Source: Patescibacteria group bacterium
GTDB lineage: Bacteria; Patescibacteriota; Patescibacteriia; SG8-24
Direction of reading: 5' to 3'
Assembly: GCA_028714475.1 (NCBI GenBank)
Contig: JAQTNC010000001.1
Span: forward strand, 86,678-150,677
Length of the DNA stretch: 64,000 bases
The position numbers were made by a program, and so were the translations under genes. This document shows, piece by piece, positions 4,690 through 59,393 of this stretch (position 1 is the first letter of the stretch; each line of letters starts with the position of its first letter). The notes beneath the pieces were generated by a model. The model was not told the origin of the DNA. It made no database searches and saw only the letters and a list, made by a program, of their open reading frames with translations.

Positions 4690-4757
4690 GCCCCTCGACT
4701 CCGCTTCGCTCCGCTCGGGTAAGAAATACGTTCTGGCCCGAGCCTGTCGAGGGGCAG
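4690..4757. repeat. palindromic intergenic repeat, family 1, copy A (full element)
   Basis: cccctcgactccgcttcgctccgctcggg - spacer - cccgagcctgtcgagggg; arms are inverted complements. Confidence 0.8.
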
Positions 4758-4826
4758 AACAACGCGGCTGTCCCGCAAGGATTGCGCAAAAACGCTTTCT
4801 TTGCTATATTGAAGCGGAAATCCCCT

Positions 4827-5348
4827 ATGAAATTCACCAAATCCGCGATTACAACCGCTTTTTTTGCCGCTATCGCCGCCGCGCCCCTTGCCGCGTCCGC
4901 CGTCTGCCCGGTCTGCACCGTGGCCGTGGGCGCCGGTCTCGGCCTCACGCGCTGGTTCGGCGTGGACGACACCGTCACCAGCCTCTGGATCGGCGCCCTC
5001 ATCGTCTCCATGACGGCCTGGACCGTGAACTGGTTGGCCGCGAAAAAACCGCGCTGGCGATTTCCGGCCGACTTCTGGGTCTGGCTCGCCGGTTACGTGG
5101 CCATGGTCTTCGTCCCGCTCTGGTACGAGGGCATCGTCGGGCATCCGCTCAACTCCCTCTGGGGCATGGACAAGGTCCTGCTCGGCTCGGCCATCGGCGG
5201 CGTGGTGTTCGGCGCCATGGCCAAGGCCTATGAAATTATGAAAGCCCGAAACGGCGGCCGCGCCCACTTCCCTTTCCAGAAGGTCGCCATGCCGGTCGCG
5301 CCGCTCTTGGCGTTGAGTTTGGTTTTTTACGTGATTACTAAACATTGA
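4827..5348 (+). CDS. hypothetical small membrane protein (signal/anchor plus 3-4 TM)
   Basis: C-terminal part of long ORF 3864..5348; ATG at 4827 follows the pgk start region; hydrophobic profile. Confidence 0.55.
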   Translation: MKFTKSAITTAFFAAIAAAPLAASAVCPVCTVAVGAGLGLTRWFGVDDTVTSLWIGALIVSMTAWTVNWLAAKKPRWRFPADFWVWLAGYVAMVFVPLWYEGIVGHPLNSLWGMDKVLLGSAIGGVVFGAMAKAYEIMKARNGGRAHFPFQKVAMPVAPLLALSLVFYVITKH

Positions 5349-5351
5349 AAT

Positions 5352-5414
5352 ACCCCTCGACTCGCTACGCTCGCTCGGGGAATATTTGTTCTTGCCCGAG
5401 CGAAGTCGAGGGCA
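5352..5414. repeat. family 1 palindromic repeat, copy B (full); its right arm supplies the GAGGG SD of the next gene
   Basis: acccctcgactcgctacgctcgctcgggg...cccgagcgaagtcgagggcaag. Confidence 0.8.
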
Positions 5415-5416
5415 AG

Positions 5417-5959
5417 ATGAAAAATATGAACGACGCCGAAAACAAGAAGCTCGACGATCTGCTCGCGCGGTTCGACAAGATGAAGGCCGACAACAAGGCC
5501 GACCTTTCCTCGGATGAGGACCTTTCCATCGCCGTCATGAACCTCGTCTCCATCGAGGAGCACCTGTTCTTCACCGGCGCGAAGATGGAACAGCCGCAGT
5601 ATTACGACCTGCTCGCCGAGGTGCGCGAGACGCGCAAGCAGCTGATGAAGAAGCTCGTGAAGAATCCCGAAGGCGAGGTCTGGTGCATCTCGAAGCACCT
5701 GCTCGCCGCGTCCATGCGCATCATGGAAGTCGGCACGAAAGCGCTCGGTGCCGGCCGCAAGGACCAGGCGCGGGAACTGTTCGAGAAGGCCTACGGCGTC
5801 TATGCCCTGTTCTGGGGGCTCAATCTCGGCGTCGTGAAGGCGGAAGGTGTGAAGGCCATCGACGACAACGCGGTCAACCGCCACGACACGGAAAAGAAGG
5901 GCCTCATGGGCAAGCTCGGCGACCTCGTGAAGAAGGCCATTGATTGCTGCATTGAATAA
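5417..5959 (+). CDS. hypothetical protein
   Basis: ATG at 5417 with GAGGG 6 nt upstream; no recognisable family. Confidence 0.5.
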   Translation: MKNMNDAENKKLDDLLARFDKMKADNKADLSSDEDLSIAVMNLVSIEEHLFFTGAKMEQPQYYDLLAEVRETRKQLMKKLVKNPEGEVWCISKHLLAASMRIMEVGTKALGAGRKDQARELFEKAYGVYALFWGLNLGVVKAEGVKAIDDNAVNRHDTEKKGLMGKLGDLVKKAIDCCIE

Positions 5960-5962
5960 GGT

Positions 5963-6025
5963 AACCCTTCGACCCTTCGACTCCGCTACGCTCCGCTCAG
6001 GGCAGGCTCCCACGCTCAGGGAATA
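5963..6025. repeat. family 1 palindromic repeat, copy C (left arm duplicated)
   Basis: cccttcgacccttcgactccgctacgctccgctcaggg...cgctcagggaata. Confidence 0.7.
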
Positions 6026-6034
6026 AAAATAATT

Positions 6035-6847
6035 ATGTTCCGCGAAGGCGCACCAAATCCCGAAATGAAGGAAACCAATCCCCTGCAGGCCAAGGTGGAC
6101 CGCGCGTTTGAGCTGGTCGCGTTGAGCGGCTTGTCCGACGAATTTCTCGACGAACGGCGCGATCAGGAGGTGTTTGAGGCGATGGAGTCGCTCTTGGCGG
6201 AACCGATAACAGCAAATTTTGGTGAAGGGTATGAATTGAGTTACGGCGAAAGCTACAGGCTGAAACACGCGGATAATGCGACCCTGGCGCGCCGCGAATC
6301 GCACAACACCAGGGGCGAGTTCGAGCCAACGGAATCCTTGATGGTGATCTGGGGCTACGAGCTGGACCTTCCCTCGGGCCGGCTCCAGATCAACTATTCG
6401 GTGTTCGGCAAAGACCGCGATTCGGACGGATGGGACAGGTGGTTGTATAAGGTGCCGGTGCTCGAAAATCAAGAAAGGGCTTTTGTCGCGTCGCCTGACG
6501 CCATCAGGAAAATCTACGAACGCCTGGAAGCGGAACACGCCGAGAGGGTCGAGAAATACGAAGCCGAGGCCGACGAATACGAAAAGGCGGCCGCCTGGGT
6601 CACGCAAAACGCCAAAAAGAAATTCCGCGCCGACGACCCCCTTCCGGACGCCCTTTCGAAGTGGCACTGGTATATCGAAGGGAAAACCTGGTCAGCTGAA
6701 TTTGACACCAGGCCAAGCCATGAGGGAGAGATTAACATCAATATCTGGAACGATCACGCGGAATCAGTTGACGACATCTGGGGTATTCCCGAACCCCTTC
6801 TGCCCGAACGCCGGTATCCGCCGAGACCGGAATCGCAGAAAAAATGA
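6035..6847 (+). CDS. hypothetical protein (acidic, Trp-rich C-terminus)
   Basis: 270-aa ORF, no recognisable family. Confidence 0.5.
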   Translation: MFREGAPNPEMKETNPLQAKVDRAFELVALSGLSDEFLDERRDQEVFEAMESLLAEPITANFGEGYELSYGESYRLKHADNATLARRESHNTRGEFEPTESLMVIWGYELDLPSGRLQINYSVFGKDRDSDGWDRWLYKVPVLENQERAFVASPDAIRKIYERLEAEHAERVEKYEAEADEYEKAAAWVTQNAKKKFRADDPLPDALSKWHWYIEGKTWSAEFDTRPSHEGEININIWNDHAESVDDIWGIPEPLLPERRYPPRPESQKK

Positions 6848-6978
6848 TTATTCACGAAAACGCCGACCGCGAGGCCGGCTTTTCATTACTAAAACGATCC
6901 GTCCCGACAGGCGGACGGATCGTTGTCCCAAGCCGAGGGCCGGCTTGGAAATGTCTGGCGAGGCCGAGCAGCGTTGGT

Positions 6979-7374
6979 TCACCACCACGGAACGATGATG
7001 ACGTCGTCGGGGCCGACCGTACTCGGCCATTGTCCCCAACTTTTTTGCCAACAGCTATAGTGGGCGCTCCAATATAGGCATTCCACTGTCTGACCCCTCA
7101 TGTAGTCAGGTTGCACGGTCTCGGCAAAGATGATGCGGTACTTCCTCCACCAGATCGGCAGGCGCCATGAACTGGTCAGCCACTGGTTGCGGCGATTTTC
7201 GGGAACCGCCCGCTTGGGTGACCGAGCCGCCAGCTCCTCCAGGCTGTGTGTGTAGTCCCTCTGCCCTTTGGGCAGCTGGATGACGCGGCCGTGGCGCATG
7301 AACGGGAACAGCACGATGCCAATGAACCAACCGATGATCCAGTCGTAGAAAGCCACTTCCCAATCTTTTTTCAT
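6979..7374 (-). CDS. hypothetical Trp-rich protein with N-terminal TM helix
   Basis: start moved to Met8 (GGAGG 8 nt upstream). Confidence 0.55.
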   Translation of the reverse strand: MKKDWEVAFYDWIIGWFIGIVLFPFMRHGRVIQLPKGQRDYTHSLEELAARSPKRAVPENRRNQWLTSSWRLPIWWRKYRIIFAETVQPDYMRGQTVECLYWSAHYSCWQKSWGQWPSTVGPDDVIIVPWW

Positions 7375-7543
7375 TTCATACCTCCGGAATTCCAACTGCG
7401 GTGTGCGGCTGGATGGACAACGGGAGACCTTGGCCCCGCCCCAGCCGTCGGCAGCCCATCAAAGATGTGCTGCCCACCGCCGAGGCGTAACCAAAGAGCC
7501 GTTGTCAAGGAACACGGCACTTTCGCATGTTTTCGGACGTTTG

Positions 7544-8464: not shown

Positions 8465-8471
8465 GGCTTGC

Positions 8472-8549
8472 GTAGCGGCAGGGTTTACCCCTGCACCACC
8501 ATAATTCAGACTCTTGTTACGGTGGTGGCGGGATAAACCCGCCCGCTAC
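8472..8549. repeat. family 2 REP-like hairpin (GTAGCGG...CCGCTAC), ~29-bp imperfect stem
   Basis: gtagcggcagggtttacccctgcaccacc / ggtggtggcgggataaacccgcccgctac. Confidence 0.75.
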
Positions 8550-10341: not shown

Positions 10342-10342
10342 C

Positions 10343-14297: not shown

Positions 14298-14456
14298 GTT
14301 TGCTCCAATCTCCAAGGAACACGCTATAAGGAGATTAGCGCGACTCACCCGGTTGTCAAGCTTAGCGAGCCGAAAAGCCTATCCTTTCTCTCGTCCACCG
14401 CCCCAACAGCCGGGATTTGACTGATTTCCCAACCGATGATAATCTCCTAAGCGTTA

Positions 14457-14620
14457 GAGCCTATCCCAATAGGTATTCGCGGCGCGAAAGCGGACGTTTC
14501 CCGCAGGGACCGGCGCGAGAAACCTCGTCGAAATATCTAGGGATATTCCTCCTCGGTTTTCGCGCGGCCCTGCGGGAAGCCTCCCGTTTTCGCCTCGCAA
14601 ACCCCTATTGGGATAGGCTC
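14457..14620 (+). ncRNA. candidate structured RNA or leader: 166-nt long imperfect hairpin with a perfect 18-bp terminal stem, directly upstream of rpmE
   Basis: agagcctatcccaatagg pairs with cctattgggataggctct; inner halves ~80% complementary; apex hairpin aatatc-tagg-gatatt. Confidence 0.3.
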
Positions 14621-14636
14621 TTAATCCGGCATCAAT

Positions 14637-16100: not shown

Positions 16101-16116
16101 TATGCCCGAATCCACG

Positions 16117-16157
16117 GCTCCAGCACTCCAGCGCTCCAGCACTCCAGCACTTCACCA
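16117..16157 (+). repeat. tandem 9-mer repeat (CCAGCACTC/CCAGCGCTC) x4, CAGCACT family
   Basis: ctccagcactccagcgctccagcactccagcacttcacc between prfA stop and the next start. Confidence 0.7.
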
Positions 16158-16167
16158 AGCCGTCATC

Positions 16168-16836
16168 ATGGCGGCTGGCCTCGGCACGCGCCTGCGTCCG
16201 CACACGCTCGAGACGCCGAAGCCGCTCTTGGCCGTCGCTGGTCGGCCGATCCTAGAATGGAACATCGATGCCTTGCCTAAGGAAATCGAGGAAATCATCC
16301 TCGTCGTCGGCTACCTACAAGAAAAAATACGCGAACATTTCGGCGCCGAGTGGGGTAGCCGACGTGTGCGCTACATCGAGCAGGCGGAACTCAAGGGCAC
16401 GGGCCACGCGCTCTTCGCCTGCCAGAACCAGCTGCACGACCGCTTCCTCGTGCTGAACGGCGACGATTTGTACGGCGTGGACGATTTGGCGGAACTCGCG
16501 CGCCACGACCTCGCCATTCTCGCCAAGGAGACGAACAAATCCTGCCGTTACGGCGCGTTCCACACCGACGAGCAGGGGCGGCTTCTTGCCATCATCGAAG
16601 GCGGCGAAACCCAGCCCGGCGCGCTCGTGAACGCCGGTGCTTACGTCCTCGACCGCGACATCTTCGACTGCCCGCTCGTGCCCATCCGCGACGGGAAGGA
16701 ATTTGGTCTGCCGCAGACCGTCGTCCTGCTCGCCCAAAAACGCCCGGTGGACATCGTCCGCGCCAACTTCTGGGTGCCCATCGGCTTTCCGGATGATTTG
16801 GAAATCGCGACCGCAGCGCTGCAGGAGCGGCTATGA
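16168..16836 (+). CDS. sugar-phosphate nucleotidyltransferase (RmlA/GlmU-like N-terminal domain)
   Basis: MAAGLGTRLRP (GxGTRLxP) motif; alternative ATG at 16102 would add a repeat-encoded N-extension. Confidence 0.7.
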   Translation: MAAGLGTRLRPHTLETPKPLLAVAGRPILEWNIDALPKEIEEIILVVGYLQEKIREHFGAEWGSRRVRYIEQAELKGTGHALFACQNQLHDRFLVLNGDDLYGVDDLAELARHDLAILAKETNKSCRYGAFHTDEQGRLLAIIEGGETQPGALVNAGAYVLDRDIFDCPLVPIRDGKEFGLPQTVVLLAQKRPVDIVRANFWVPIGFPDDLEIATAALQERL

Positions 16837-20356: not shown

Positions 20357-20660
20357 ACTTGGTCACCTTTGCTGTTATGTTACCACAATTTTCGGAAATT
20401 CGACAGCTAATCTGGCGCATATCAGACAAACCTAAAAAGCGCCGCCATCGGGCCACCTGACTCTGCGAACGCCCCCTCCCTCGCCCGCGTCGCCCATGCG
20501 CCACGCGGCCAGCGGAGCCGCCCGCAGGGGCTGGCGCGGAGGGCTTTTCCGGGGCGCGGGTGGAACGCGCCCTGCCCGGAGCGCCTGCCCCTGCGGGCGG
20601 CGGAGCGAATCGCTAGCGACACCAATCTGCCCGGTTTCCGCACTGAACGACGAAGAACCA

Positions 20661-22162: not shown

Positions 22163-22900
22163 ATGATTCAAGAAGTCCATCTCGAAGACGGTTCCGGGGT
22201 CGGCGCGCCGTACCCCCGCATCCCGGCCGAACTGCCGCCGCGCGGCAAGCTATACGAATTCCTGCTCGACAGCGGCGACCGTAAATTCGTCACGGAGCGA
22301 GTCCTGCCGATGCTCGACGCGCTGACCACGGCTGACGAAGCCGTGGGTAACGAGCTCGTCATCTTGGCCGAGGACGGCAGCAAAGCCGCCGAACAGCGCC
22401 TCATCGTGGCGGGCAACCCGCTCTTGGGCGCCAGCGGATTCTTCACCAAGGTCCGTTTCTTGAGCCTCGAAGCCCTCAAGGCCACCGTCCCGAACAACCC
22501 GCCGAACGAAGACCGACTCAGGCTGGCGTTGGACGACCTGGCCCAGAACTGCACGACCAACGCACTGCTCGATGCCCTCGAGTCTCAATTGAGGGAGTTT
22601 CGGGTGGGTCTTGCCATCCAGAACACGTCCAACCTCCGATCGCTTCTCGGTACGACCTTGAAACGGCCGGACGGCCTCGCCTGGCACTGGTCCCATCTCG
22701 GGACAAACGGCTCTTGGCCGACGAACTGTTGGGCCTCGCCGCTGTTGCCGCCCCTGTTGCTGGTCTGTCTGGTGCGCGCGCTCGGCCCCAGTCGCCGGAT
22801 CGAACGCTACCAGCCCATGATCGAAGCGTGGGCCGACGGCTACCGCCCGCTTGGTCCGGACCGCGAGGATCGGACCACACTCGTCGTCCTCGTGCGCTGA
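22163..22900 (+). CDS. hypothetical protein
   Basis: GAGG 7 nt upstream of ATG; terminator downstream. Confidence 0.5.
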   Translation: MIQEVHLEDGSGVGAPYPRIPAELPPRGKLYEFLLDSGDRKFVTERVLPMLDALTTADEAVGNELVILAEDGSKAAEQRLIVAGNPLLGASGFFTKVRFLSLEALKATVPNNPPNEDRLRLALDDLAQNCTTNALLDALESQLREFRVGLAIQNTSNLRSLLGTTLKRPDGLAWHWSHLGTNGSWPTNCWASPLLPPLLLVCLVRALGPSRRIERYQPMIEAWADGYRPLGPDREDRTTLVVLVR

Positions 22901-22924
22901 CACGCCTTCGCGTCACGCGCCAAA

Positions 22925-22965
22925 CCGCCGCCCCGGCTCGCTTGAGCTGGAGCGGCGATTTTTAG
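22925..22965 (+). terminator. rho-independent terminator
   Basis: cgccgc-cccggctcgcttgagctggag-cggcg followed by ATTTTTAG. Confidence 0.6.
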
Positions 22966-22995
22966 CTAGTAGCTAGTTGCTAGTAGCTAGTAGAA
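22964..22995. repeat. microsatellite (TAGCTAG)n
   Basis: tagctagtagctagttgctagtagctagtag. Confidence 0.7.
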
Positions 22996-23062
22996 AATGG
23001 TGGCCTCCCAAAGGCTTGGTCGAGTAATCTTTATCGTTCTTGCCCGACCCGCGTGGAGGGCC

Positions 23063-23150
23063 TGCCCCTCGACTCCCCCTTCGACTCGCTTCGCTCGCTC
23101 AGGGTCCGCTCGGGGAAGAACGGGGGGGCTCCGCTCAGGGAATATTGTTT
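23063..23150. repeat. family 1 palindromic repeat, copy D (expanded; ~60 nt near-identical to the copy inside rlmN, opposite orientation)
   Basis: ctgcccctcgactcccccttcgactcgcttcgctcgctcagggtccgctcgggg... Confidence 0.8.
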
Positions 23151-23236
23151 GAATATAAAAAAGTCCCGCCCAGTGAAGCGCGAGACTTCCCTGGACGGGC
23201 TAAGACCTAGCAAGACGAGTTGTTTCTCCGCCGCTG

Positions 23237-23728
23237 TTACGGTGTGGTCGCCTGTTCCGCCGGCACGAGAGCGCCGATCCAGTAGAGGTTTATCTTCCTT
23301 TTCGACTCCGGATGGTAGAATTCCTGTCCTCGACAAAAATCAGGCTGCTCTGGCCGGTTGTCCCAATCGAGCAAGGCGCAATACGTTCCCTCGTGCTGAA
23401 CGGTGCAGGATCGCACCCGGCCAGTCACCCGGAAAAAGGCGATGACTCGGAGGCGGCGTTGTGGCACAGCGGCGTTCGCCCTGCCTCCGACCTCCCATGC
23501 CCCAAGGGCATCGGAAAATTCGAACGGGCGCACCCGCTGCCAATCGACGGTCACGTCGTCGCCGACAGCGATGCCGCTTAACTCATCCTTGACCTTGTCG
23601 AGCAGGAGGGTGGCGTTCCCCTCGTCGAATTTCAGGCCATGACTGCGATGGCTGACGCGTACGCCATGCTCCGCGATGGCCGCCAGGAGTTCGCGCTGTA
23701 AATTCCAAAGACCCTTGTTGATGGACAT
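23237..23728 (-). CDS. hypothetical protein
   Basis: GAAGGAGAAGG SD ~7 nt upstream of ATG. Confidence 0.55.
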   Translation of the reverse strand: MSINKGLWNLQRELLAAIAEHGVRVSHRSHGLKFDEGNATLLLDKVKDELSGIAVGDDVTVDWQRVRPFEFSDALGAWEVGGRANAAVPQRRLRVIAFFRVTGRVRSCTVQHEGTYCALLDWDNRPEQPDFCRGQEFYHPESKRKINLYWIGALVPAEQATTP

Positions 23729-23879
23729 TTTCCTTCTCCTTCATACTGAAGAATTCCGGCTCACTGCCGGCATTCACGACTCAACCCTAGGTCGATACGG
23801 CGGGTTTGTCAAGATGGACGATAATAAAAAGTGCGCAGCACACTTTGCGGAAAAATGACTTCATTTCGCGAGGCCGGGC

Positions 23880-24170
23880 GGGGTCGCCCTTTAAGGCCGG
23901 TCGAGCGAGCGACGGCTCGGTCCCCCTCACCATTCCGACGCCGGAATGGTGAGGGGGCGTCGCGAGCGAAAGTTATTCAGCCGAGCGAAGCGAGCCCCGG
24001 AATCCGCCGCAGGCGGATATCCGGGGGAAGGCCGCCGCTGGAGCGGCCGAGCGTGCCGAAAGGGCGACCCCACCCGGCCGGACGTTTGTGGTTGACGTTG
24101 CCCCTCGACTTCGCTCGGGGCAGAATAATTGAATGGATCCTCCCCGCAGTACTGCGGGGAGGATAACATT
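23880..24170. repeat. repeat-rich noncoding cluster: 14-bp perfect hairpin (23925-23958), family 1 fragments (23958-23998, 24100-24125) and family 3 palindrome cccgcagtactgcggg (24141-24168)
   Basis: seen in sequence. Confidence 0.65.
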
Positions 24171-24210
24171 ATTTGTGCCCCGAGGATGACAAAAAATTTG
24201 ATCTGCGCAC

Positions 24211-25383: not shown

Positions 25384-25482
25384 AAGAGACAAAGAGACAG
25401 AGAGACAAAGTGACGAGTAGTCTGCACCACTCTGTCTCTATGTCTCTCTGCCTCTGTATCTCTATGTCTCTCTAGCTCTCTG
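25384..25482. repeat. GA-tract followed by complementary CT-tract (family 4, CTCTGTCTCT-type), potential long hairpin
   Basis: agagacaaagagacagagagacaaag ... ctctgtctctatgtctctctgcctctgtatctctatgtctctc. Confidence 0.6.
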
Positions 25483-25485
25483 CCC

Positions 25486-26331
25486 CTACCTCCCCGGCGG
25501 AATGAAAACGCCCGGGTCGAAAATATTCACGTCCGTCATCACCTGGACCTCGCGCACGGTCGGCAGGTCGTTGAACCAGCTGGCCTCGACCGTCCGACTT
25601 TGGCCGGCCCGCAATTCGCTGATGGTCACGTAGTTCACGCCGACATCCCGTGAAGAACCGATGAGGCGCACGAAGAAGCCCAGACGCCAGAAGCTGTACG
25701 CAGTATCATTTACTATCTTGAAGGTGGCGCGGCCGACCGGCACCGGATCCGTCAGTTCCGGCGCGCGGAAAGCGACGTCTTCCAACCGCAAGTTCAGACG
25801 CGCCCGCATCCAGCCGATGATGTCGGGTCCGGTAACATGCTTGTCCACCCGATGCCAAACGAGGGAGGAGAAGCGCATCTGCGCCCCTTGGTGCCCTTCG
25901 CCCTTCACCCCTAACTGATATAGGTTTTTGGTGGAGCTGGGCAGGATGAAGTCGTGTTTCGACTGGCCAAGCTGGTTTTCGCCGTCCGCAAAATAGTAAT
26001 CGAATTCCGCCCAAGCGTGCGGGTTGGGATTCGTCACCTCGACATACAGGTCGCTCGTCTGGCCGTTCACCTCGATGAGGTCGGCCGAACCGTAGGCGAG
26101 CGGCTGAAGGCGCGTCTTGCGGATGACTTCCGTCGGGATGTCCGGCTGGCCAAGGACGCGACCGACCTGCCGTTCCGCGACGCCGTGGCCGAAGAACCAG
26201 TCGTAGAATCCATATCCGCCGTAAGCGAGCATCAGGAACGCCACGACCGCCAAAGCGATGGTGCCAGAGCGCGCCAACTGGGCGCGATTGTTTACCCACC
26301 AATAACCCCACTTCAGGGATTTTTCCGTCAT
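25486..26331 (-). CDS. hypothetical membrane-anchored protein
   Basis: start set at Met26 (GAGGAACAA upstream of ATG); single N-terminal TM. Confidence 0.55.
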   Translation of the reverse strand: MTEKSLKWGYWWVNNRAQLARSGTIALAVVAFLMLAYGGYGFYDWFFGHGVAERQVGRVLGQPDIPTEVIRKTRLQPLAYGSADLIEVNGQTSDLYVEVTNPNPHAWAEFDYYFADGENQLGQSKHDFILPSSTKNLYQLGVKGEGHQGAQMRFSSLVWHRVDKHVTGPDIIGWMRARLNLRLEDVAFRAPELTDPVPVGRATFKIVNDTAYSFWRLGFFVRLIGSSRDVGVNYVTISELRAGQSRTVEASWFNDLPTVREVQVMTDVNIFDPGVFIPPGR

Positions 26332-30376: not shown

Positions 30377-30458
30377 TAGAGTGCTGGAGGAATTGTTTGG
30401 GTCCCTATTTGTTTATCAAGTTTTTTCTTCAGTACTTCAGCACTTCCCCGCTCCAGCA
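30377..30458. repeat. CAGCACT-family repeats (agtgctggag ... cttcagtacttcagcacttcc ... ctccagcact)
   Basis: inverted copies flanking a ~60-nt spacer. Confidence 0.55.
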
Positions 30459-30484
30459 CTTCCTTTTTTGTGGTCTGAAAAAGC

Positions 30485-31457: not shown

Positions 31458-32594
31458 ATGGCTGACTATCCAAAAATCCGTCATGAAATTTTCCAAGCGC
31501 TTTTTCCGGAAGCGCCGGCTTATCGCTGGCGTCAGGCTGAGGAAGCGCTTTTTCGGCCGGGCGCGACAGGCTGGTCAGACGCCACTTCCCTGCCCCGCGA
31601 GATGCAGACGACGCTTGCGGAAAAGATGCCGTGGATTTCCGTAGCGCCTGACAAAATTCTGTCGAACGCGAACGGCGACACGCACAAGGCCGCCTTGCGC
31701 CTCGCGGACGGTGCCATCATCGAAACGGTGCTCATGCGCAACCGCCGCGGCCAATGGACAATCTGCACCTCGAACCAGGTCGGCTGCGCCATGCGCTGCG
31801 CCTTCTGCGCCACCGGCCGGCTGGGCTTCACCCGCAACCTGACGGCGGACGAAATCGTGGACCAATATCGATTTTGGAATACCTGGCTCTCCGCCTCCTC
31901 GTTCTCCCCCGAGCGGACCCTGAGCGAGCGAAGCGAGTCGAAGGGGGAGTCGAGGGGCAGCAGAGATACTAAGAATGAGGATGATGTGTCCGCATCGACT
32001 CGCATCAGCAACCTCGTCCTCATGGGCATGGGCGAACCGCTGGCGAACTACGACAACGTGAAGGCCGCGCTGAAAACGTTGCTCAAACAAACAGACCTCG
32101 GCGCGACGCGCGTCACCGTTTCCACCGTTGGCCTTCTGCCGGGTCTCGAAAAACTACTCGACGACCCTGACTGGCCGCCAGTGCGTCTCGCCATCTCGCT
32201 CCATAGCGCCGATCAGGCCGTGCGCGAAGGCATCATGCCGACCACCATCCCCGACTACCTGCCGAAGCTCGGCGACTGGGTGCGCCGCTATCTCAAGAAG
32301 CACGGCAACCGCCGCCACCATCTCACTTTCGAATATGTCATGCTGGCGAACGTTAACGACGAGCCCCGCCACGCGGCCCAACTCGCCGGTTTCGCGAATG
32401 CCGCCGGCCACGTGAAAATCAACCTCATTCCGTACAACTACACTGACTCGCAATTCTCCGGCTCGGCCGACGAGGTGATCGCCGACTTCCAGAATTTTCT
32501 CGAGCAGAAAGGGGTAACCGTAACCGTTCGCCGCTCGATGGGCCAAGACATCGCCGCCGCGTGTGGTCAGCTGGCCAATAAACTATTGAAATAA
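31458..32594 (+). CDS. rlmN: 23S rRNA/tRNA m2A methyltransferase RlmN (radical SAM), with a ~28-aa in-frame insertion encoded by a family 1 repeat
   Basis: CAMRCAFCATG radical-SAM cluster, MGMGEPL; extra ~28 aa between the EIV and ISNLV segments relative to E. coli RlmN. Confidence 0.9.
   Translation: MADYPKIRHEIFQALFPEAPAYRWRQAEEALFRPGATGWSDATSLPREMQTTLAEKMPWISVAPDKILSNANGDTHKAALRLADGAIIETVLMRNRRGQWTICTSNQVGCAMRCAFCATGRLGFTRNLTADEIVDQYRFWNTWLSASSFSPERTLSERSESKGESRGSRDTKNEDDVSASTRISNLVLMGMGEPLANYDNVKAALKTLLKQTDLGATRVTVSTVGLLPGLEKLLDDPDWPPVRLAISLHSADQAVREGIMPTTIPDYLPKLGDWVRRYLKKHGNRRHHLTFEYVMLANVNDEPRHAAQLAGFANAAGHVKINLIPYNYTDSQFSGSADEVIADFQNFLEQKGVTVTVRRSMGQDIAAACGQLANKLLK
31904..31958. repeat. 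family 1 palindromic repeat, copy F, inserted in-frame in rlmN
   Basis: cccccgagcggaccctgagcgagcgaagcgagtcgaagggggagtcgaggggcag, reverse complement of copy D. Confidence 0.85.
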
Positions 32595-35297: not shown

Positions 35298-35362
35298 TAT
35301 AGTGCTGAAGATGGGGGCGCTGAAGTACTGAAGAAAAAACCTTCAGCACTTCAGCACTCCAG
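35298..35362. repeat. CAGCACT-family palindromic hairpin
   Basis: agtgctgaag...gctgaagtactgaag-aaaaaacc-ttcagcacttcagcactccagc. Confidence 0.65.
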
Positions 35363-35378
35363 CAATTCCCCACTCTCT

Positions 35379-49559: not shown

Positions 49560-50237
49560 ATGCCGACCAAGGGAAAATTTTTCGTCATCGACGGCACCGA
49601 CGGATCGGGCAAGAAGACGCAGACCGAATTGATGGTGGAAAAACTGCGCGCCTCCGGCCGCCGCGTCGAGACCGTCAGCTTTCCGCGATACGGCAAGCAG
49701 AGTTGTTCCGCGGTCAGCGACTACTTGAGCGGCCGTTTCGGCGCGGCGCACGAAGTCGATCCCAAAGTCGCCTCGATGTTCTACGCCATGGACCGCTACG
49801 ACGCCAGTCCGCAGATCCGCGCCTGGCTCGATGAAGGCGCCATCGTCATTGCCGACCGTTACGTCAGCTCCAACATGGGCCACCAGTGCGGCAAGATCGG
49901 CGACCCCGAAGGACGCGAGGCCTGCATCCGCTGGAACAAGGAGTTGGAATATGGCCTGTTAAACCTCCCCCGCCCCGACCTCACCGTCATCCTGCACGTG
50001 CCGGCGGAAATCTACCTGCGTCTGCTCAAGGAACGCGACGGCGAGCATCAGGACATCCACCAGGCCGACCCCGAACACCTGAAGAATGCCGAAGAAACCT
50101 ACCTGGAAATCGCCAAGAGCGATGCCCAGTACCGCCTCGTCGAGTGCGCGCCGGAAGGCGTTCTCCTTAGCCGCGAGGCCATCCACGAGCTTGTCTGGCA
50201 GGAGGTCGAAAAAACGTTGACACAGGCTGACGGGTAA
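49560..50237 (+). CDS. tmk: thymidylate kinase (copy 1)
   Basis: FFVIDGTDGSGKKTQ P-loop, DRY motif; start 1 nt after the thyX stop. Confidence 0.9.
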   Translation: MPTKGKFFVIDGTDGSGKKTQTELMVEKLRASGRRVETVSFPRYGKQSCSAVSDYLSGRFGAAHEVDPKVASMFYAMDRYDASPQIRAWLDEGAIVIADRYVSSNMGHQCGKIGDPEGREACIRWNKELEYGLLNLPRPDLTVILHVPAEIYLRLLKERDGEHQDIHQADPEHLKNAEETYLEIAKSDAQYRLVECAPEGVLLSREAIHELVWQEVEKTLTQADG

Positions 50238-50270: not shown

Positions 50271-50333
50271 GCCCTGAGCCTGTCGAAGGGCGTATTTTTT
50301 GCATTCCCTTCGACTTCGCTCAGGGAATATAAG
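50271..50333. repeat. family 1 palindromic repeat, copy G (arms in swapped order)
   Basis: gccctgagcctgtcgaaggg...cccttcgacttcgctcaggg. Confidence 0.7.
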
Positions 50334-50422: not shown

Positions 50423-51109
50423 ATGTCCGACAAAAGAAATGGCTTGTTCGTTGTCATCGATGGTCCGGACGGAACGGGCAAACACACCCAGGTCGTCAAA
50501 CTCGAAGTGCGCATGCATGCCGAAAATCTAGAGCCCATTGAACAGGCGAGCTTCCCGCGCTACGGCGAACGCAGCTGCGAGCTCGTAAAGATGTACCTGG
50601 GCAACGAATTCGGCCCAGCTGCGAGTCTGGATCCGCGCATCGCTTCCGTTTTTTTTGCGGTCGATCGTTTTGCCGCCAGGCAAAAAATGGTCGAAGTCCT
50701 GTCGGCCGGAGGAATCATACTCTCTGACCGGTTTGTCTCGGCCAACGCCGGCCACCAGTGTTGCAAGATCGACGACCCTGACGCGCGCCGCGCCTTCCTG
50801 CGGTGGCTCGACGAATTCGAATTCGGGCTCATGCAATTGCCACGCCCGGACATCACGCTCATTCTCACCCTGCCGCTCGATATCATCCAGCGCCGGCTCC
50901 AGGCGCGCGACGGCGATAAGCAGGACGGCCACCAGGCCGACCCGAACCACCTCGCCAGGGCACTCATTGCCTACGAGGAGATCGCCCAGCAGTCTGGCTA
51001 TCGCCGCATCGATTGCGCGCCGGGCGGCCGCGAGCTGTCCGAGCAGGAGGTCCATGAACTCATCTGGCGCGAGGTCGAGCCTTTGTACCGCGCCCATCGC
51101 CCAACCTGA
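50423..51109 (+). CDS. tmk: thymidylate kinase (copy 2, paralogue)
   Basis: FVVIDGPDGTGKHTQ P-loop, DRF motif; co-linear with copy 1. Confidence 0.88.
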   Translation: MSDKRNGLFVVIDGPDGTGKHTQVVKLEVRMHAENLEPIEQASFPRYGERSCELVKMYLGNEFGPAASLDPRIASVFFAVDRFAARQKMVEVLSAGGIILSDRFVSANAGHQCCKIDDPDARRAFLRWLDEFEFGLMQLPRPDITLILTLPLDIIQRRLQARDGDKQDGHQADPNHLARALIAYEEIAQQSGYRRIDCAPGGRELSEQEVHELIWREVEPLYRAHRPT

Positions 51110-53738: not shown

Positions 53739-53766
53739 CCCCGCAGTACTGCGGGGGATGGTCATC
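53739..53766. repeat. family 3 perfect palindrome (ccatcccccgcagtactgcgggggatgg)
   Basis: core cccgcagtactgcggg shared with 24141-24168 and 59307-59334. Confidence 0.75.
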
Positions 53767-54127: not shown

Positions 54128-55108
54128 TCACCGGCTACTTTTGCCCCTGTTTTCGCGTCTGTTCTTGAGCCAAGCACCAGCGAGCCGAAAGGCCGTTTTC
54201 GGCGATGCAACCCAACGAATCGCGGCGTCTCTTTTGAACCAGGCCTGCTGTCGCTTGGCAAAACGGCGCGTGTCGCGCTTGATTCTGCGCACCGCTTCCT
54301 CAAGGGTCGTCTCGCCACGCAGGTATCCGCCCAACTGACGATGACCGAGGCTCGTGAGCACCGGCGCGTCCCAGCCGTAACGGCGACCGAGACGCTGCGC
54401 CTCCTTGAGGAGCCCGTCTTTCATCATGCGGTCAACGCGCTGGTCTATCCGCCGATACATTTCCTCGCGTGGCCGACTGACGCCGATCTTCAGTACGTCG
54501 AAAAGGGGTTCTCCTTTTTGTTGAAGGTCGGTCATGGTGCGTCCGGTCGCCCGCATGACCTCTAGCGCACGAATGATGTAACGAGGATTCCGCCCGGCTC
54601 GCGCCGCATAGGCAGAGTCTTTCGCAACTAATTCTGCCCCGAGCTTGTCGAGGGGCAGTTTGGCACATGCTGCTCGGAACTTCATGTCCGGTGGAGCTTC
54701 CGGCATCTGAAAATTATCCGCTACGGCGCTCACATACAATCCGGTGCCGCCGCAAAGAATTGGCAGACGGCCGCGCTTGATGATTTCCCGCGCTTTCCTG
54801 ACCGCCAACGTCTTGAACTCCGCGAGCGTGATTGGCTTGGCTGGCGACCGGAAAGCAATGAGATGGTGTGGCACGCCTTGCGCGATATACACGCGCCGTG
54901 CGCCGCGCTTTACCCACTTACCAGGAATGATGTCCGCGCCGATATCCAAACCACGATAAAACTGCCGCGAGTCCGCGGAAATGATTTCGCCGTTGAATTT
55001 CCTGGCGAGCGCAATCGCCAAGTCCGTCTTCCCCGCCGCCGTCGGACCGAGAATAACAAGTAGCGGCGGGGTGCGGCACGAAGACTTGGAGTGCCGCACG
55101 GGCGGCAT
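54128..55108 (-). CDS. miaA: tRNA dimethylallyltransferase
   Basis: GPTAAGKT P-loop and MiaA core; start at internal ATG 55108. Confidence 0.88.
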   Translation of the reverse strand: MPPVRHSKSSCRTPPLLVILGPTAAGKTDLAIALARKFNGEIISADSRQFYRGLDIGADIIPGKWVKRGARRVYIAQGVPHHLIAFRSPAKPITLAEFKTLAVRKAREIIKRGRLPILCGGTGLYVSAVADNFQMPEAPPDMKFRAACAKLPLDKLGAELVAKDSAYAARAGRNPRYIIRALEVMRATGRTMTDLQQKGEPLFDVLKIGVSRPREEMYRRIDQRVDRMMKDGLLKEAQRLGRRYGWDAPVLTSLGHRQLGGYLRGETTLEEAVRRIKRDTRRFAKRQQAWFKRDAAIRWVASPKTAFRLAGAWLKNRRENRGKSSR

Positions 55109-55987: not shown

Positions 55988-56339
55988 GGCAATTCCTTTC
56001 GTCGTCGTTCCGGCTTCGCCTTGGGCCGCACCGTGCGGCTTTTTGGTTGGCCAATTGAAAAGAACGACCTAAACGCTGCTGGAGCGTTGCGGATACCCTA
56101 GCACACTCCGAAAAAATGTCAACCGGTACAAACCGTACCATCGGCGGCGGAACCCCTTCGCCCCGGCTCCCGGGCCGGGGCGGCGGTTTGGTAATACATT
56201 ACGGTGAGCCGACTGCATTCCGCTCAGGGGATATAATAATTCCTTGCGGAAGACTCGCCGTCATTTCGCGAGGCCAGCCCTGCACCGTAATGGTACAGGG
56301 CTCCCGCAGGCCCAGCGCGTGCTTTTATTAGGTTAGTGG

Positions 56340-56480
56340 AAGGTGCTTCCGAGGCGACCGCCGGGCGGAGCCGGTTCCGGAGACAATCGCTCGCGCAATT
56401 ACGCATCCAGCGCGAGCGCTGTCGACGGAAGCGGCTCCGCCCGGCGGGAGCGGCTTTCTCTGGATTTCGTTTTTTCTCGT
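56340..56480 (+). ncRNA. candidate structured RNA within a 600-bp noncoding region: ~110-nt extended hairpin followed by a T-rich tract
   Basis: ccgccgggcggagccggttccgg pairs with ccggaagcggctccgcccggcgg; inner tcgctcgcgc/gcgcgagcg; followed by atttcgttttttctcg. Confidence 0.25.
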
Positions 56481-56585
56481 GAGTCGTTCGCCGACTCGCG
56501 GCACACCCTGCGGCAGGCAGAGGCCTGGATCCCCGCTTTCGCGGGGATGGTAAGAATATAGGTGGTGTCAGGACAAGCCTGACCG

Positions 56586-57926
56586 CTACACCTTCTCCCC
56601 CTCCAGCATCCATGTCATCGACTTCGTCACTTTCATGAGCACGATCTGACCGGTTAGGTCCGCGTCCGAGCGGAACCGCGCCAGTTTCATCTCCCGTGTG
56701 TTGCCGACCCAGAAGCCCTGCCTGCCGGCAGGCACGGCGCGGTCCCGCCGCTCCACCAGCACCTCCACCACCCGGCCAAAATATGTCTGATTCTTGCGGA
56801 AAACCGTCTCTTCCATCAGGTCCTGCAAGGCGTTCCACCGCCGCTTCTTCTCCTCGCGCGGCACATCATCTTTATAGAACTGCGCGGCCTGCGTGCCGGA
56901 ACGCACGCTGTACATGGCGTTGTAGGAGATGTCGAAGTCAGCGGCGCGATACAGGCGCAGGGTGTCCTCGAACTGTTCCGCCGTCTCGCCACAGAACCCG
57001 ACGATGATGTCCGTGCCAAGCGCGATGCCTGGCCGACGCTCGTTCACGCGCCGGATGATGTCGAGATATTGTGCGGAGGTGTATCGCCGATTCATGCGCT
57101 TCAGCACCTCGTCGTTGCCCCCCTGCACCGGCAAATGCAGGTAATTCACCTGGTGCGGCAAAGCGAGCGCGTCAATCACCTCTTCCGTCATGTGCGTCGG
57201 GTAGGAAGCAGTGTAGTGAATGCGGCGCAGGCCGGACAAACGATCAATCTCCCAAAGCAACGCGGCAAAATGATCCTTGTACGGATTGGCGGCGGAGAAC
57301 GACGACGGGTCAGGCGCGCAATACGCATTCACGGCCTGACCGAGCAGAGTAATTTCAACTACGCCGCGGCCAACCAATTCCGCTGCCTCGGAAAGAATAT
57401 CCGCCGCCGGCCGGTTCTTCTCCAAACCGCGCGCGTGCGGCACGACGCAATAGGTGCAGAACTTGTTGCAGCCGGTCTGGATCGGCACGAACGCCTGGAA
57501 CGCGCTCGTGTGCCGCGGACGGATCTTCAGGTAATCGTCGGTCATCTCGCCGCACGTCGCGAAGTCCGGCCGCAGTTCCGCGAGCCAACGCGGCAGCTGG
57601 GTCATGTCGTGAATCGGGAAATACAAATCCGCGCCCGGCATCTTAGCGCGAATCTTCCCGTCCTTGTCGCGTCCCGGCAGACAGCCGGTGACGCCGACGA
57701 TCAAATCGGGCTTGCTCTCCCTCAACCGACCGAACTCCTTCAGCTTGCCGAAAATCCGGTCCTCGGCCGCCTGCCGCACGGAGCAGGTGTTGAGCAGAAT
57801 CAAATCCGCCGCGGTTTCGTCCGCCGTCTCGACCAATCCCAATGAATCCAGAAGCGCGGCCAGGCGCTCGGAGTCGGATTTATTCATCTGGCAGCCGAAG
57901 GTGATGAGGTGATACTTCAAACCCAT
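56586..57926 (-). CDS. miaB: tRNA (i6A37) methylthiotransferase MiaB
   Basis: MTTase N-domain, radical SAM CxxxCxxC (GCNKFCTYC), C-terminal TRAM domain. Confidence 0.88.
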   Translation of the reverse strand: MGLKYHLITFGCQMNKSDSERLAALLDSLGLVETADETAADLILLNTCSVRQAAEDRIFGKLKEFGRLRESKPDLIVGVTGCLPGRDKDGKIRAKMPGADLYFPIHDMTQLPRWLAELRPDFATCGEMTDDYLKIRPRHTSAFQAFVPIQTGCNKFCTYCVVPHARGLEKNRPAADILSEAAELVGRGVVEITLLGQAVNAYCAPDPSSFSAANPYKDHFAALLWEIDRLSGLRRIHYTASYPTHMTEEVIDALALPHQVNYLHLPVQGGNDEVLKRMNRRYTSAQYLDIIRRVNERRPGIALGTDIIVGFCGETAEQFEDTLRLYRAADFDISYNAMYSVRSGTQAAQFYKDDVPREEKKRRWNALQDLMEETVFRKNQTYFGRVVEVLVERRDRAVPAGRQGFWVGNTREMKLARFRSDADLTGQIVLMKVTKSMTWMLEGEKV

Positions 57927-58018
57927 AACAGCGGAAGGTTAACCGTAAAAAGCCGATATGTCAACGCGAAAATCGTCGGTTAAGTTACGCAAAATCCTTC
58001 ACCTATTAGACAAAATCA

Positions 58019-58047
58019 TTGACAAATAAGCAAAAATATGCTAAGGT
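58019..58047 (+). promoter_or_regulatory. putative promoter (TTGACA-17-TAAGGT)
   Basis: seen in sequence in an AT-rich spacer upstream of the 58084 gene. Confidence 0.35.
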
Positions 58048-58083
58048 TTAATTATCCTAAACCATCAAATATTTTGAAACTAT

Positions 58084-59289
58084 ATGAGACACGAAGGCGC
58101 ACCAAGACTGCCGGATGAGGTCGTCGACCAGCCGGAAGACAAAGCCGTCGAAGACCGTCGTTCTGGCGAGTACGAAAAATTCGATACGGCTGGTATTTTT
58201 GATGCCCTTCCTAGCGAGGATGAGGCAAAAAAATTCGAGCAAACAGCGCCCGAAGCCGATCCGGAAATCACAATCGGCCGCGACGAACTGACAGAAGAAG
58301 AAATGGATGCCGTTCGGCAAGAAGCAAATGCCTCGCTGAAACCCGTGGAGTTGAAGGCGCCGGTGGGCAAAAGGGAGCCCGATGACGAAAATTTTCCCAT
58401 CCCCAAAGGTGCGGTAGGCAGGGTTGAGGGTTCAATGAAGCTGCCCGAAAATTTACCTATATCGATGTCAAAGAAGAGCGAGGCCCAGATGAGGAAAGAA
58501 ACGGCTGAGACCAGGGAGTATTTCCCCATCCCCAAAGGCGCCGAGGGCAAGGTTGAACTGAAGAGTCCGGTGGCTTCGCCGGAATCGCAGGCGGCTCATA
58601 GGGCGCGTCGGGCGGCAGAACTGGAAAGAGCACAGGCTCAAGTCGAAGCGGCCTTTTACGCGCAAGGCGACAAGATGACGGCGGGGACGGAACGCTCAAA
58701 GCGAGCGATGGCCGAAGCGAGTCAGCGCCTCGCCGAAGCCCGAAAGAACGCCGCTCCGGAAATCACCATCAAAGAAGCAACGGCCGCAGAAACGGGTGAA
58801 GCAAACCGAGCGGTGGACGAGGCGAATCAAGCGGCTGCCAACGAACAGCTTAGTGCCGAATCCAGCGCGGAAGAACAGGCTTTCTTCGAAACGGGCTCCA
58901 GAGGATATACGGAACGCGGCGAGGGCGGCATGACAGCCGGCCAAGTCGGCGAGTACGTTGACAAGGGGGCATCGCTGAAAAAAACCGGGGGTGTCGGGGA
59001 AAATGCCGCCTCGCGCGTCGCGTTCCTGACCAAACGGATTGAGGAGCTCAAAAAGGTGGAGGCCGAAACGGAGCCCGCTGCTCAAGCCCAAAAGATGAGA
59101 GGGTTTTTTGGCAGGCTCCTAAACCGCAAGGATGCCGGGGCCGCGCTCTCGCACAAGAAAGCGGTCGAGGCACTGGGCAACGCCCAAGCCGAACTCAATG
59201 AAATCAGGAACCGCCAGGCAAATCCAGAGGGGACGGCATATGCCGGCGCCATCCGCAGTGTAACCGCCGCGGCGAAGCGCGGTCGCTAA
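58084..59289 (+). CDS. hypothetical acidic Ala/Glu-rich low-complexity protein with internal FPIPKGA(V/E)G(R/K)VE repeat
   Basis: ORF followed by a strong terminator; no SD. Confidence 0.5.
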   Translation: MRHEGAPRLPDEVVDQPEDKAVEDRRSGEYEKFDTAGIFDALPSEDEAKKFEQTAPEADPEITIGRDELTEEEMDAVRQEANASLKPVELKAPVGKREPDDENFPIPKGAVGRVEGSMKLPENLPISMSKKSEAQMRKETAETREYFPIPKGAEGKVELKSPVASPESQAAHRARRAAELERAQAQVEAAFYAQGDKMTAGTERSKRAMAEASQRLAEARKNAAPEITIKEATAAETGEANRAVDEANQAAANEQLSAESSAEEQAFFETGSRGYTERGEGGMTAGQVGEYVDKGASLKKTGGVGENAASRVAFLTKRIEELKKVEAETEPAAQAQKMRGFFGRLLNRKDAGAALSHKKAVEALGNAQAELNEIRNRQANPEGTAYAGAIRSVTAAAKRGR

Positions 59290-59300
59290 ACAAGATTGAA

Positions 59301-59340
59301 AACCGCCCCCCGCAGTACTGCGGGGGGCGGTTTTGATTTG
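59301..59340 (+). terminator. rho-independent terminator built on the family 3 palindrome
   Basis: ccgccccccgcagtactgcggggggcgg followed by TTTTGATTTG. Confidence 0.8.
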
Positions 59341-59363
59341 AGCAGCACGCATACGCATGTTCT

Positions 59364-59393
59364 TCCCCGAGCGGAGCGCAGCGGAGTCGAGGG
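59364..59393. repeat. family 1 repeat, copy H (left arm, reverse orientation)
   Basis: cttccccgagcggagcgcagcggagtcgaggggc. Confidence 0.7.

Follow-up and report, generated by a model that had tools for sequence, protein, structure and literature searches.

The window analysed here is a 64,000-nucleotide (nt) stretch of contig JAQTNC010000001.1 from a member of the Patescibacteria (candidate phyla radiation, CPR). It carries a dispersed family of short repeats, Family 1, which on balance probably represents a non-autonomous hairpin repeat of the repetitive extragenic palindromic (REP) or bacterial interspersed mosaic element (BIME) type. The pattern CC[CT]TCGAC-(0-16 nt)-GCTC[AG]GG occurs 12 times in the window, compared to a mean of 0.05 and a maximum of one occurrence in 100 dinucleotide-preserving shuffles. 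The family has sharp limits, since allowing one mismatch in this pattern adds no further copy in the window. When the 12 units were turned into an nhmmer profile, the search recovered the same 12 (E = 8e-9 to 3e-4) and in addition partial copies, of which four consist of a tail alone (6006-6026, 23105-23120, 23130-23146, and 56211-56234) and two of a head alone (23063-23075 and 31947-31960). The profile was based on a hand-made Stockholm alignment, since MAFFT misaligned the unit heads owing to the variable linker. In total, ten loci of the window hold 12 exact units and some six half units, at a density of about one copy per 6 kb. Eight of these loci are intergenic, and three are arranged as inverted doublets. 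A first-pass annotation of the window had proposed a ~65-nt palindromic element at ten intervals. The existence of a repeat family and eight of these intervals are borne out, as are the occurrence of full and half copies in both orientations and their mostly intergenic dispersal in the window. A palindrome of the proposed size, on the other hand, fits only three of the ten loci (A, B, and G), and the repeat proper is a unit of ~20-30 nt. Independent Logan assemblies (SRR22315508, SRR22315509) contain locus A and half of locus B with no mismatches, so that the repeats cannot be put down to a single assembly.

The building block, 17-28 nt in length, reads NNCC(C/T)-TCGAC-linker-GCTC-(G/A)GGNN, with a GC-rich stem of 4-5 base pairs (bp) and a loop of 11-24 nt in which TCGAC and GCTC are invariant. 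The base before TCGAC pairs with the base after GCTC in 12 of 12 window units, which on this basis fall into a G-type (C with G, seven units) and an A-type (T with A, five units). The same pair matches in 170 of the 171 distinct units in all sequences fetched, and the next pair outward is formed in 91% of the distinct units from all sources, compared to 71% in shuffles. Pairs were counted on fixed-length pseudo-sequences. For 74 distinct units the covariation score was 0.330 versus 0.191 in shuffles, a value reached by none of 500 shuffles, and it topped every slid register. Among these 74 units, the pair before TCGAC and after GCTC was CG in 54 cases, UA in 19, and UG in one, and the pair outside the invariant CC/GG was CG in 33, UA in 26, GC in three, and UG in two. 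These pair counts, together with the covariation score, establish a 4-5-bp stem closing a loop with unvarying TCGAC and GCTC ends. The linker comes in two length classes, a short one of 2-3 nt (AA, AG, or TTC) and a long one of 11-13 nt, which reads TC(C)GCTNCGCTC(C) and is in effect an expanded TCGC tract. In the lineage of the window, G-type units carry the 3' tail GGGG(N)AGAAC and A-type units the tail AGGGAATAT. Units stand alone, are nested in each other's loops, or form inverted long and short doublets, and the doublets yield 60-70-nt hairpins with an 8-13-nt bulge, which at loci A and B derives from the long linker. Mimicry of a tRNA T-loop by TTCGAC was considered and rejected, as the flanks do not allow the G53-C61 pair and the corresponding sequence in G-type units is CTCGAC.

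Evidence for copying comes from a 68-nt composite that is present twice. At locus D (23062-23129, + strand), between the convergent open reading frames (ORFs) 22163-22900 and 23237-23728, an A-type long unit (23078-23103) lies within the loop of a G-type unit, and the whole reads CCCCTCGACTCC[...]TCCGCTCGGGGAAGAAC. At locus F (31893-31960, - strand) the same composite lies in frame in the rlmN coding sequence (CDS; 31458-32594), where it encodes ...SPERTLSERSESKGESRG..., in agreement with the earlier claim that one copy is located inside a CDS. Positions 23062-23129 match the reverse complement of 31893-31960 at 65 of 68 bases (96%), and the alignment breaks off sharply at both ends into unrelated flanks (GGAGGGC...TCCGC versus CTCTG...GGAGA). 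Neither a target-site duplication nor a direct repeat was found around the two composite copies or the single units. Compared to 15 homologues of 53-66% identity, the window RlmN, which is 100% identical to the annotated RlmN P0001, has ~28 extra in-frame residues (SFSPERTLSERSESKGESRGSRDTKNEDD) between the radical-SAM cysteine motif and the conserved ISN.VFMGMGEPL strand, and its ORF is intact. At the level of sequence, the duplicated composite is thus evidence for copy-and-paste spread of the element. The RlmN site itself (~31880-31990) is an insertion hot spot, with unrelated insertions of 10-30 residues in the CPR homologues P0018, P0021, P0058, and P0098.

The distribution of units among relatives was compared on five syntenic CPR contigs from partial genomes (L155, L156, L278, L279, and L280), which were found through their RlmN and MiaA homologues. 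In L278 (Logan SRR27370451), 21 kb contain seven units, whose AGAA tails are those of the window units: one unit 6 nt after the thrS stop codon, an inverted pair upstream of tmk, and another pair upstream of gatB. These sites are analogous to sites in the window; unit types, orientations, and arrangements differ. No units were detected in the sampled regions of L155 (13.7 kb), L156 (21 kb), L279 (21 kb), and L280 (9.8 kb) by nhmmer at E <= 1 to 50. Presence/absence variation between relatives, which the first-pass annotation had proposed to look for, is thus seen for the family. Identities to the window of ribosomal protein L1 (L155, 80%; L156, 76%; L278, 65%) and NusG (L155, 91%; L156, 88%; L278, 85%) place L155 and L156 at least as near to the window as L278. 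The patchy presence among relatives therefore fits gain and loss rather than a fixed inherited regulatory sequence.

Three loci do form the long palindromes that had been described for the family as a whole. Locus A (4690-4757) consists of a long unit (4692-4719, +), a 17-nt spacer, and a short unit (4737-4753, -), and is located between the divergent starts of pgk (4622, - strand) and ORF 4827-5348; its RNA fold has a free energy of -38.9 kcal/mol (z = -4.2), and the Logan contigs L153 and L154 match it with 0 mismatches. Locus B (5352-5414) combines a long unit (5354-5379, +) with a short one (5395-5412, -) and occupies the 68-nt gap from the stop at 5348 to the ATG at 5417. In its fold (-33.1 kcal/mol, z = -4.6), 8 nt of the 5' arm bulge out, and L153 stops mid-repeat here. 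The right arm of locus B contains GAGG (5408-5411) 5 nt before the ATG of ORF 5417-5959, which bears out the proposal that a repeat copy supplies the Shine-Dalgarno (SD) sequence of this gene. Locus G (50271-50333) is a head-to-head doublet of short A-type units (50273-50289, -; 50307-50324, +) with a fold of -34.9 kcal/mol (z = -8.0). A conserved hairpin upon folding, as had been anticipated for the copies in general, is thus found for doublets A, B, and G (z = -4.2 to -8.0), but not for locus C (5963-6026, +; z = +0.5). The latter had been listed as a palindrome at 5963-6025 and is in fact a nested direct arrangement, non-palindromic and without a hairpin, in which the head CCCTTCGA occurs twice (5965 and 5973) together with a full long A-type unit (5974-6001) and a second tail (6014-6021, GCTCAGGGAATA), all in the gap from the stop at 5959 to the ATG at 6035. 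Locus G separates two tandem thymidylate kinase paralogues (49560-50237 and 50423-51109, both Pfam Thymidylate_kin); the relatives L278 and L279 each have a single tmk gene.

The remaining members are single, composite, degenerate, or partial. Locus E (24100-24125, +) is a single short G-type unit (GCCCCTCGACTTCGCTCGGGGCAGAA) just past a palindromic terminator-like hairpin after ftsW and forms a small hairpin of its own (-12.3 kcal/mol, z = -2.2). Locus I (59360-59396, -) is a single long G-type unit (CCCCTCGACTCCGCTGCGCTCCGCTCGGGGAAGAAC), 95% complementary to 4689-4725, and lies between the convergent ORF 58084-59289 and thrS (stop 59473), likewise past a palindromic terminator-like hairpin. 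Both correspond to previously listed copies (24100-24125 and 59364-59393), as does the composite in rlmN (31904-31958). The interval 23063-23150 also contains a member, although as composite D plus an extra tail rather than as a palindrome. This tail-only fragment (23130-23146, +; TCCGCTCAGGGAATATT; nhmmer partial E = 0.16) matches the fragment at 56217 at 15 of 16 positions. Downstream of miaB, where a copy had been placed at 56217-56243, there is indeed a tail fragment (GCTCAGGG plus ATAT) but no whole unit (56211-56243, +; TTCCGCTCAGGGGATATAATAA; nhmmer partial E = 0.79). In contrast, the interval 23958-23998 has to be struck from the family, as it contains neither head nor tail motif (nhmmer E = 29) and is part of a separate 221-nt structured segment. 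Three copies had been overlooked, namely locus H (54632-54658) in miaA, a degenerate inverted unit directly before composite D (23036-23061, -; reverse complement GCCCTCCACGCGGGTCGGGCAAGAAC; 81% identical to 5388-5413), and a partial unit at ~64092 (CCCTTCGACAAGCCCTGAACC) on Logan contig L151, which runs 120 nt beyond the window end.

The structured segment (23865-24085) is an observation of its own. Its - strand RNA fold reaches -153.6 kcal/mol (z = -11), with a 21-bp closing stem and five internal hairpins, and Rfam returned nothing for it even at E <= 5; the segment may represent an unknown structured RNA or belong to an inserted cassette. L156 lacks a stretch of ~2.3 kb (within 22163-24200) made up of this segment, loci D and E, and two ORFs that gave no Pfam hit; in L156 the corresponding gap lies between a 117-amino-acid ORF and ftsW.

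Locus H (54632-54658, -; CTGCCCCTCGACAAGCTCGGGGCAGAA) is a short G-type unit with an AGAA tail that matches 4731-4757 at 25 of 27 positions and encodes LPLDKLGAE in miaA. The window MiaA is neither lengthened nor shortened by it in comparison with solved MiaA structures and CPR homologues. The orthologous codons read CCCCTCGACAGGCTCGGGGAAGAAT in L278 and, in decayed form, CCTCTCGACAGGCTCGTGGCAAAAC in L280, and show no resemblance in L279. We count this copy as a probable member, either an ancient unit that is now coding or a look-alike driven by the CDS.

To place Family 1 among known elements, we compared it with published repeat families. Two REP superfamilies are distinguished by a GTAG or a CGTC tag; their stems measure 8-9 bp and their loops 4-5 nt, they form head-to-head and tail-to-tail dimers, are placed adjacent to stop codons, and include intragenic in-frame copies (Di Nocera et al. 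2013, PMC3733652). In a canonical REP, GT[AG]G stands 0-2 nt from the foot of a hairpin whose stem has 7-20 bp and whose loop has 2-5 nt (Quentin et al. 2018, PMC6006769). Like REPs, BIMEs, and REP doublets forming hairpins (REPINs), Family 1 consists of many short hairpins, mostly intergenic near stop codons and some intragenic; its units occur singly, in clusters, and as inverted long-hairpin doublets, without target duplication and with coexisting subtypes (PMC3733652, PMC6006769). The stop-codon placement and the intragenic occurrence, in particular, agree with published REP behaviour (PMC3733652). Unlike REPs and REPINs mobilised by REP-associated tyrosine transposases (RAYTs), however, the unit has a stem of 4-5 bp instead of 7-20 bp and a conserved loop of 11-24 nt instead of 2-5 nt. 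While the stem is conserved in canonical REPs, here it is the loop that is conserved, with the linker in two length classes, and the unit is shared between phyla, unlike REP sequences, which as a rule are confined to a species or genus. No GTAG or GTGG flanks any of the 12 units; the reverse foot reads (A/G)TTCT or ATAT. The label REP, one of three offered in the first-pass annotation, is therefore apt for the kind of element, a dispersed hairpin repeat, and not for its details, as it has neither a GTAG/CGTC tag nor a small loop and no RAYT was found in the sequences searched. Because it departs from known families in tag and stem/loop geometry and no linked RAYT was found, we regard the element as REP-like in its workings and as standing outside them.

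Other families share individual features. The CGTC REPs, which include Rickettsia RPE-4 and RPE-6 and Neisseria dRS3 (PMC3733652), resemble Family 1 in that no dedicated transposase is identified, that they occur in several phyla, that head-to-head dimers are frequent, and that intragenic in-frame copies are found in housekeeping genes. They differ in their CGTC/TGTC tag, AT-first 8-9-bp stem, 4-5-nt loop, and CCA tail, all of which are absent from the window units. Gemmatimonadales-type relatives of the unit read TGTC-ATCCC..., similar to a CGTC tag, yet have the large loop. The 'atypical' hairpins around class 3 TnpA_Y1 genes of Acidobacteria, Planctomycetes, and Proteobacteria, which were found only by manual inspection, are likewise weakly paired, untagged, and high in copy number (~600 in Solibacter usitatus; Quentin et al. 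2018, PMC6006769), but they read CnGA-GCCGCGACCGTnAGGGAGCG and flank a Y1 gene, a linkage not seen for the unit. A connection through CC(C/T)GAGC, which contains CnGA, was ruled out by these CnGA-GCCGCGACCGTnAGGGAGCG sequences in the supplement. The Rickettsia palindromic element (RPE) RPE-1 is similar in being a palindromic repeat that sits in frame in essential genes and keeps the ORF, as in RlmN here. RPEs are nevertheless 100-150 bp long, restricted to Rickettsia, and probably unrelated in sequence, and there is only one clear in-frame insertion in the window; they have the in-frame behaviour alone in common with Family 1, and membership in this group, another of the labels offered, is not supported. 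The TCGAC/GCTC motif is absent from the supplementary tables of PMC3733652 and PMC6006769, searching full texts for the motif string returned unrelated primer matches only, and no BLAST match to the doublet consensus or locus A was obtained among PLSDB plasmids. As far as these sources go, the unit type appears to be undescribed, cross-phylum, and outside the GTAG/CGTC and RAYT families.

Several observations weigh against a mobile REP/BIME-type repeat. The first is the geometry set out above: the unit lacks a GTAG/CGTC tag, and neither its 4-5-bp stem nor its 11-24-nt loop conforms to the rules for canonical REPs. Secondly, no mobilising enzyme was found in the sequences searched. No Y1/HUH, DDE, recombinase, or other transposase domain was present in the window ORFs scanned with Pfam, which were part of the total, the remainder being recognised by eye as housekeeping genes. 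All-against-all ORF clustering of 145 unit-bearing viral and metagenome loci revealed no recurrent neighbour gene, and no non-housekeeping gene is common to the window and the unit-bearing loci. Searching all loci by phmmer with two Y1 queries yielded one ORF, at 3155-3703 of L276. This is an IS200-like Y1 ORF with HVH and Y---Q--HH motifs, whose position is ~45 nt downstream from a Family-1-type unit. The hairpins on either side of it are its own and of a different, GCCCCGGCGGGGC type, and the otherwise identical L192 has the same unit and flank without the ORF; the adjacency is therefore coincidental, and we rejected the ORF as a mobiliser in favour of a separate REPtron-like insertion. Transposition of Family 1 is an argument by analogy. 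Thirdly, because the miaA unit causes no length change and is kept in a 65%-identical orthologue, not every copy is a recent insertion.

If Family 1 is nonetheless a REP/BIME-type repeat, as we favour, its copies would arise by copy-and-paste at the DNA level without target duplication. Most likely, the hairpin would form in single-stranded DNA and its constant loop would be recognised by a factor encoded elsewhere, which by analogy may be an HUH/Y1-type enzyme, though none was found. Copies would persist where they are tolerated, that is, near stop codons, between operon genes, past terminators, and in a putative surface loop of RlmN. Once transcribed, the stable hairpin of a copy may serve as a secondary cis element. 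At locus B, ribosomes would finish the upstream ORF 4 nt before the hairpin, and with the SD sequence in the right arm of that hairpin, translation of ORF 5417-5959 would depend on these upstream ribosomes.

Outside the CPR, 25 IMG/VR contigs contain the long-form core, which most often reads GATCCTTCGACTC(C)GCTNCGCTC(C)GCTCAGGATGACA, and the G-type long form is present in at least 120 metagenome contigs of 37-74% G+C, mostly as (GTGCA)GATCCCTCGACTCGCTNCGCTCGCTCGGGATGAC(A). The loop in these metagenome and viral contigs is identical to that of the window units, and the stems vary (ATCCC/GGGAT, ACCCC/GGGGT, GTCCT/AGGAC, and others). Because stems differ between sources while the loop stays the same, the stem covaries. 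The commonest pairing in metagenomes, a long unit with an inverted short one in tail-to-tail orientation (11 cases), is the arrangement seen at loci A and B. Carriers include a Gemmatimonadales contig (L167, judged from its S9 peptidase) and one Myxococcaceae and one Terriglobales metagenome-assembled genome (MAG), each with several short-form units per 4-8 kb, and an Archangium MAG has one short-form unit. The first-pass annotation had taken the element to be active in this lineage; as a peculiarity of the lineage this is not supported, since a unit with an identical loop is common in Gemmatimonadales-type soil contigs, Myxococcaceae, Terriglobales, and IMG/VR. Family 1 probably belongs to a superfamily shared across phyla, which would point to horizontal spread of the mobilising system or to a widely conserved recognising factor. 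Tentatively, we raise the possibility that this superfamily, with members in Patescibacteria, Gemmatimonadota, Myxococcota, Acidobacteriota, and viral contigs, is an undescribed one of REP-like elements in which the constant loop is recognised instead of a tag plus stem and which has no link to a known RAYT/Y1 class.

Three further observations were made on the sequences collected for this comparison. In the viral contig L015 (IMGVR_UViG_3300031555_011079), eight co-oriented copies of a ~90-nt intergenic repeat that embeds the unit lie between 717 and 12640, with the layout GCTTAGCAGTGTTTCAGTGCGAAGATCC-unit-ATGACAGGTGCGGTGG...AAACGATCATTTA; this repeat looks like a regulatory intergenic element of a phage. 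The metagenome contig L268 contains five head-to-tail G-type long units with a 34-nt period (CCCCTCGACTCGCTTCGCTCGCTCGGGACAGGCC), an array that has no counterpart in the window. The loose pattern CCCTCGACN{2,14}GCTCGGGN{1,2}AGAA, which matched at least 118 loci in genome_contigs, was discarded, as most of these are the conserved proteobacterial coding sequence CCCTCGACGGTGACGAAGCTCGGGCAGAAGCC. The latter (L034-L150) is highly conserved and apparently coding in many Proteobacteria and represents a chance match to the loose pattern, and hence a trap in searches.

The main rival explanation regards the units as selected cis-acting hairpins, such as mRNA 3'-end stabilisers or processing sites, attenuators, or sites for a conserved host protein that reads the constant TCGAC...GCTC loop, which spread by selection and not by transposition. 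We consider this rather unlikely and keep it alive because of the invariant loop, the conserved miaA copy, and the recurrence at thrS and tmk. An invariant loop across phyla on a covarying stem is the signature of a structure-specific binding site, and in many cases a stop codon precedes the copy by 4-80 nt (loci B, C, E, and I, and the L278 unit 6 nt after thrS). Against this reading, no U-tract follows the hairpins. Intrinsic terminators in particular were dismissed, since a scan of 4000-7000 returned no site at loci A, B, and C and the sequence after the units is not T-rich. Furthermore, locus A lies between divergent gene starts, and loci E and I lie past separate terminator-like palindromes. 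The copy at locus B carries the SD sequence of the next gene, as a selected regulatory site might; units nevertheless occur in both orientations relative to the flanking genes, and some lie within a CDS. The relatives can be read in both directions. Units of the window and L278 are found at analogous places, after thrS and upstream of tmk, and the miaA unit is kept in two lineages whose MiaA proteins are 65% identical. However, the analogous L278 sites hold other unit types and orientations, and four syntenic relatives are without units at the same gene junctions. Finally, a 68-nt composite copied into a gene is difficult to reconcile with spread by selection of a cis element.

It is very improbable that the ~65-nt palindromes are miniature inverted-repeat transposable elements (MITEs), the remaining label offered, i.e. 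internally deleted derivatives of a DDE-type insertion sequence (IS) whose ends would read CCCCTCGAC... and would serve the parent transposase as terminal inverted repeats. Like MITEs such as the Correia elements of Neisseria and RUP/BOX, Family 1 is small, non-autonomous, and dispersed, mostly between genes, can supply signals to neighbouring genes, and at three loci forms near-perfect inverted repeats of 63-68 nt. MITEs, in contrast, have defined terminal inverted repeats, target duplications, and an IS origin. Neither the composite nor the single units show a target-site duplication, most loci are single, nested, or direct, and the doublets are both tail-to-tail and head-to-head. In addition, no parent IS was found in the window, and no transposase among its scanned ORFs or beside units elsewhere. 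Equally hard to credit is the absence of any homologous family, with GC-rich hairpins from (TCGC)n slippage and coding sequence for P-L/F-D-K-L-G/R recurring independently: the microsatellite-like variation in linker length, the loose-pattern matches to conserved proteobacterial coding sequence, and a miaA unit that encodes conserved LPLD(K/R)LG without insertion speak for it, but 12 exact units where 0.05 are expected, two 68-nt copies that are 96% identical, tails (AGAAC or AATAT) shared outside the search motif, and the same long and short doublet architecture in unrelated metagenome contigs largely refute it for the intergenic copies and leave it possible for the miaA copy alone.

The setting of the repeats is otherwise unexceptional. 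The window has a G+C content of ~60% and contains ordinary housekeeping genes, of which pgk, ftsW, rlmN, miaA, miaB, thrS, gatB, thyX, two tmk genes, and the gene for L25 are backed by Pfam, and enolase, GAPDH, EF-Ts, RF1, gyrB, nusG, S2, L11, and L1 were read by eye from the translations. Like RlmN, the MiaA of the window is 100% identical to an NCBI entry from a Patescibacteria group bacterium. ARAGORN found no tRNA genes in the window. Rfam 15 gave no match at the gathering threshold across the whole window, and only chance-level matches (E >= 3) in 4650-6060. A second repeat family consists of the perfect palindrome CCCCGCAGTACTGCGGGG with complementary flanks (24142-24159, 53739-53756, and 59308-59325), each copy just downstream of a stop codon (ftsW, gatB, and ORF 58084-59289) in a terminator-like position; a Family-1 unit stands directly after two of the three. 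Two sets of 8-nt tandem repeats, CT(C/T)CAGCA-like (16102-16169, 30427-30470, and 35333-35376) and CTCTGTCT-like (25385-25494 and 62662-62704, with an inverted copy at 25385-25414), are each found repeatedly, in some cases where a gene starts or ends. Long GC-rich intergenic inverted repeats with arms of 28-38 nt, unrelated to Family 1, are located upstream of L31, downstream of L25, and downstream of miaB (14456-14621, 20517-20601, and 56358-56447).

CPR genomes are regarded as small and streamlined. One hairpin repeat per 3-6 kb, patchy in relatives and tolerated within rlmN, amounts to active small-scale turnover of such a genome. The repeats also explain why short-read assemblies break at these points, and their units give rise to spurious 'hypothetical proteins' (...PLDSLRSLG..., ...PFDKLR...) that confuse gene calling in MAGs. 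REP-type elements are normally lineage-specific and tied to a cognate RAYT. A near-identical 20-30-nt unit across unrelated phyla, with an invariant loop and compensating stems, is unusual for elements of this type. Should the cross-phylum superfamily be real, it would represent an unrecognised mobilising or recognising system that crosses phyla and works even in CPR genomes of ~1 Mb, with copies built into essential proteins (RlmN and possibly MiaA). If a single trans-acting factor reads the loop, Family 1 would define a new class beside REP/RAYT and IS200/IS605.

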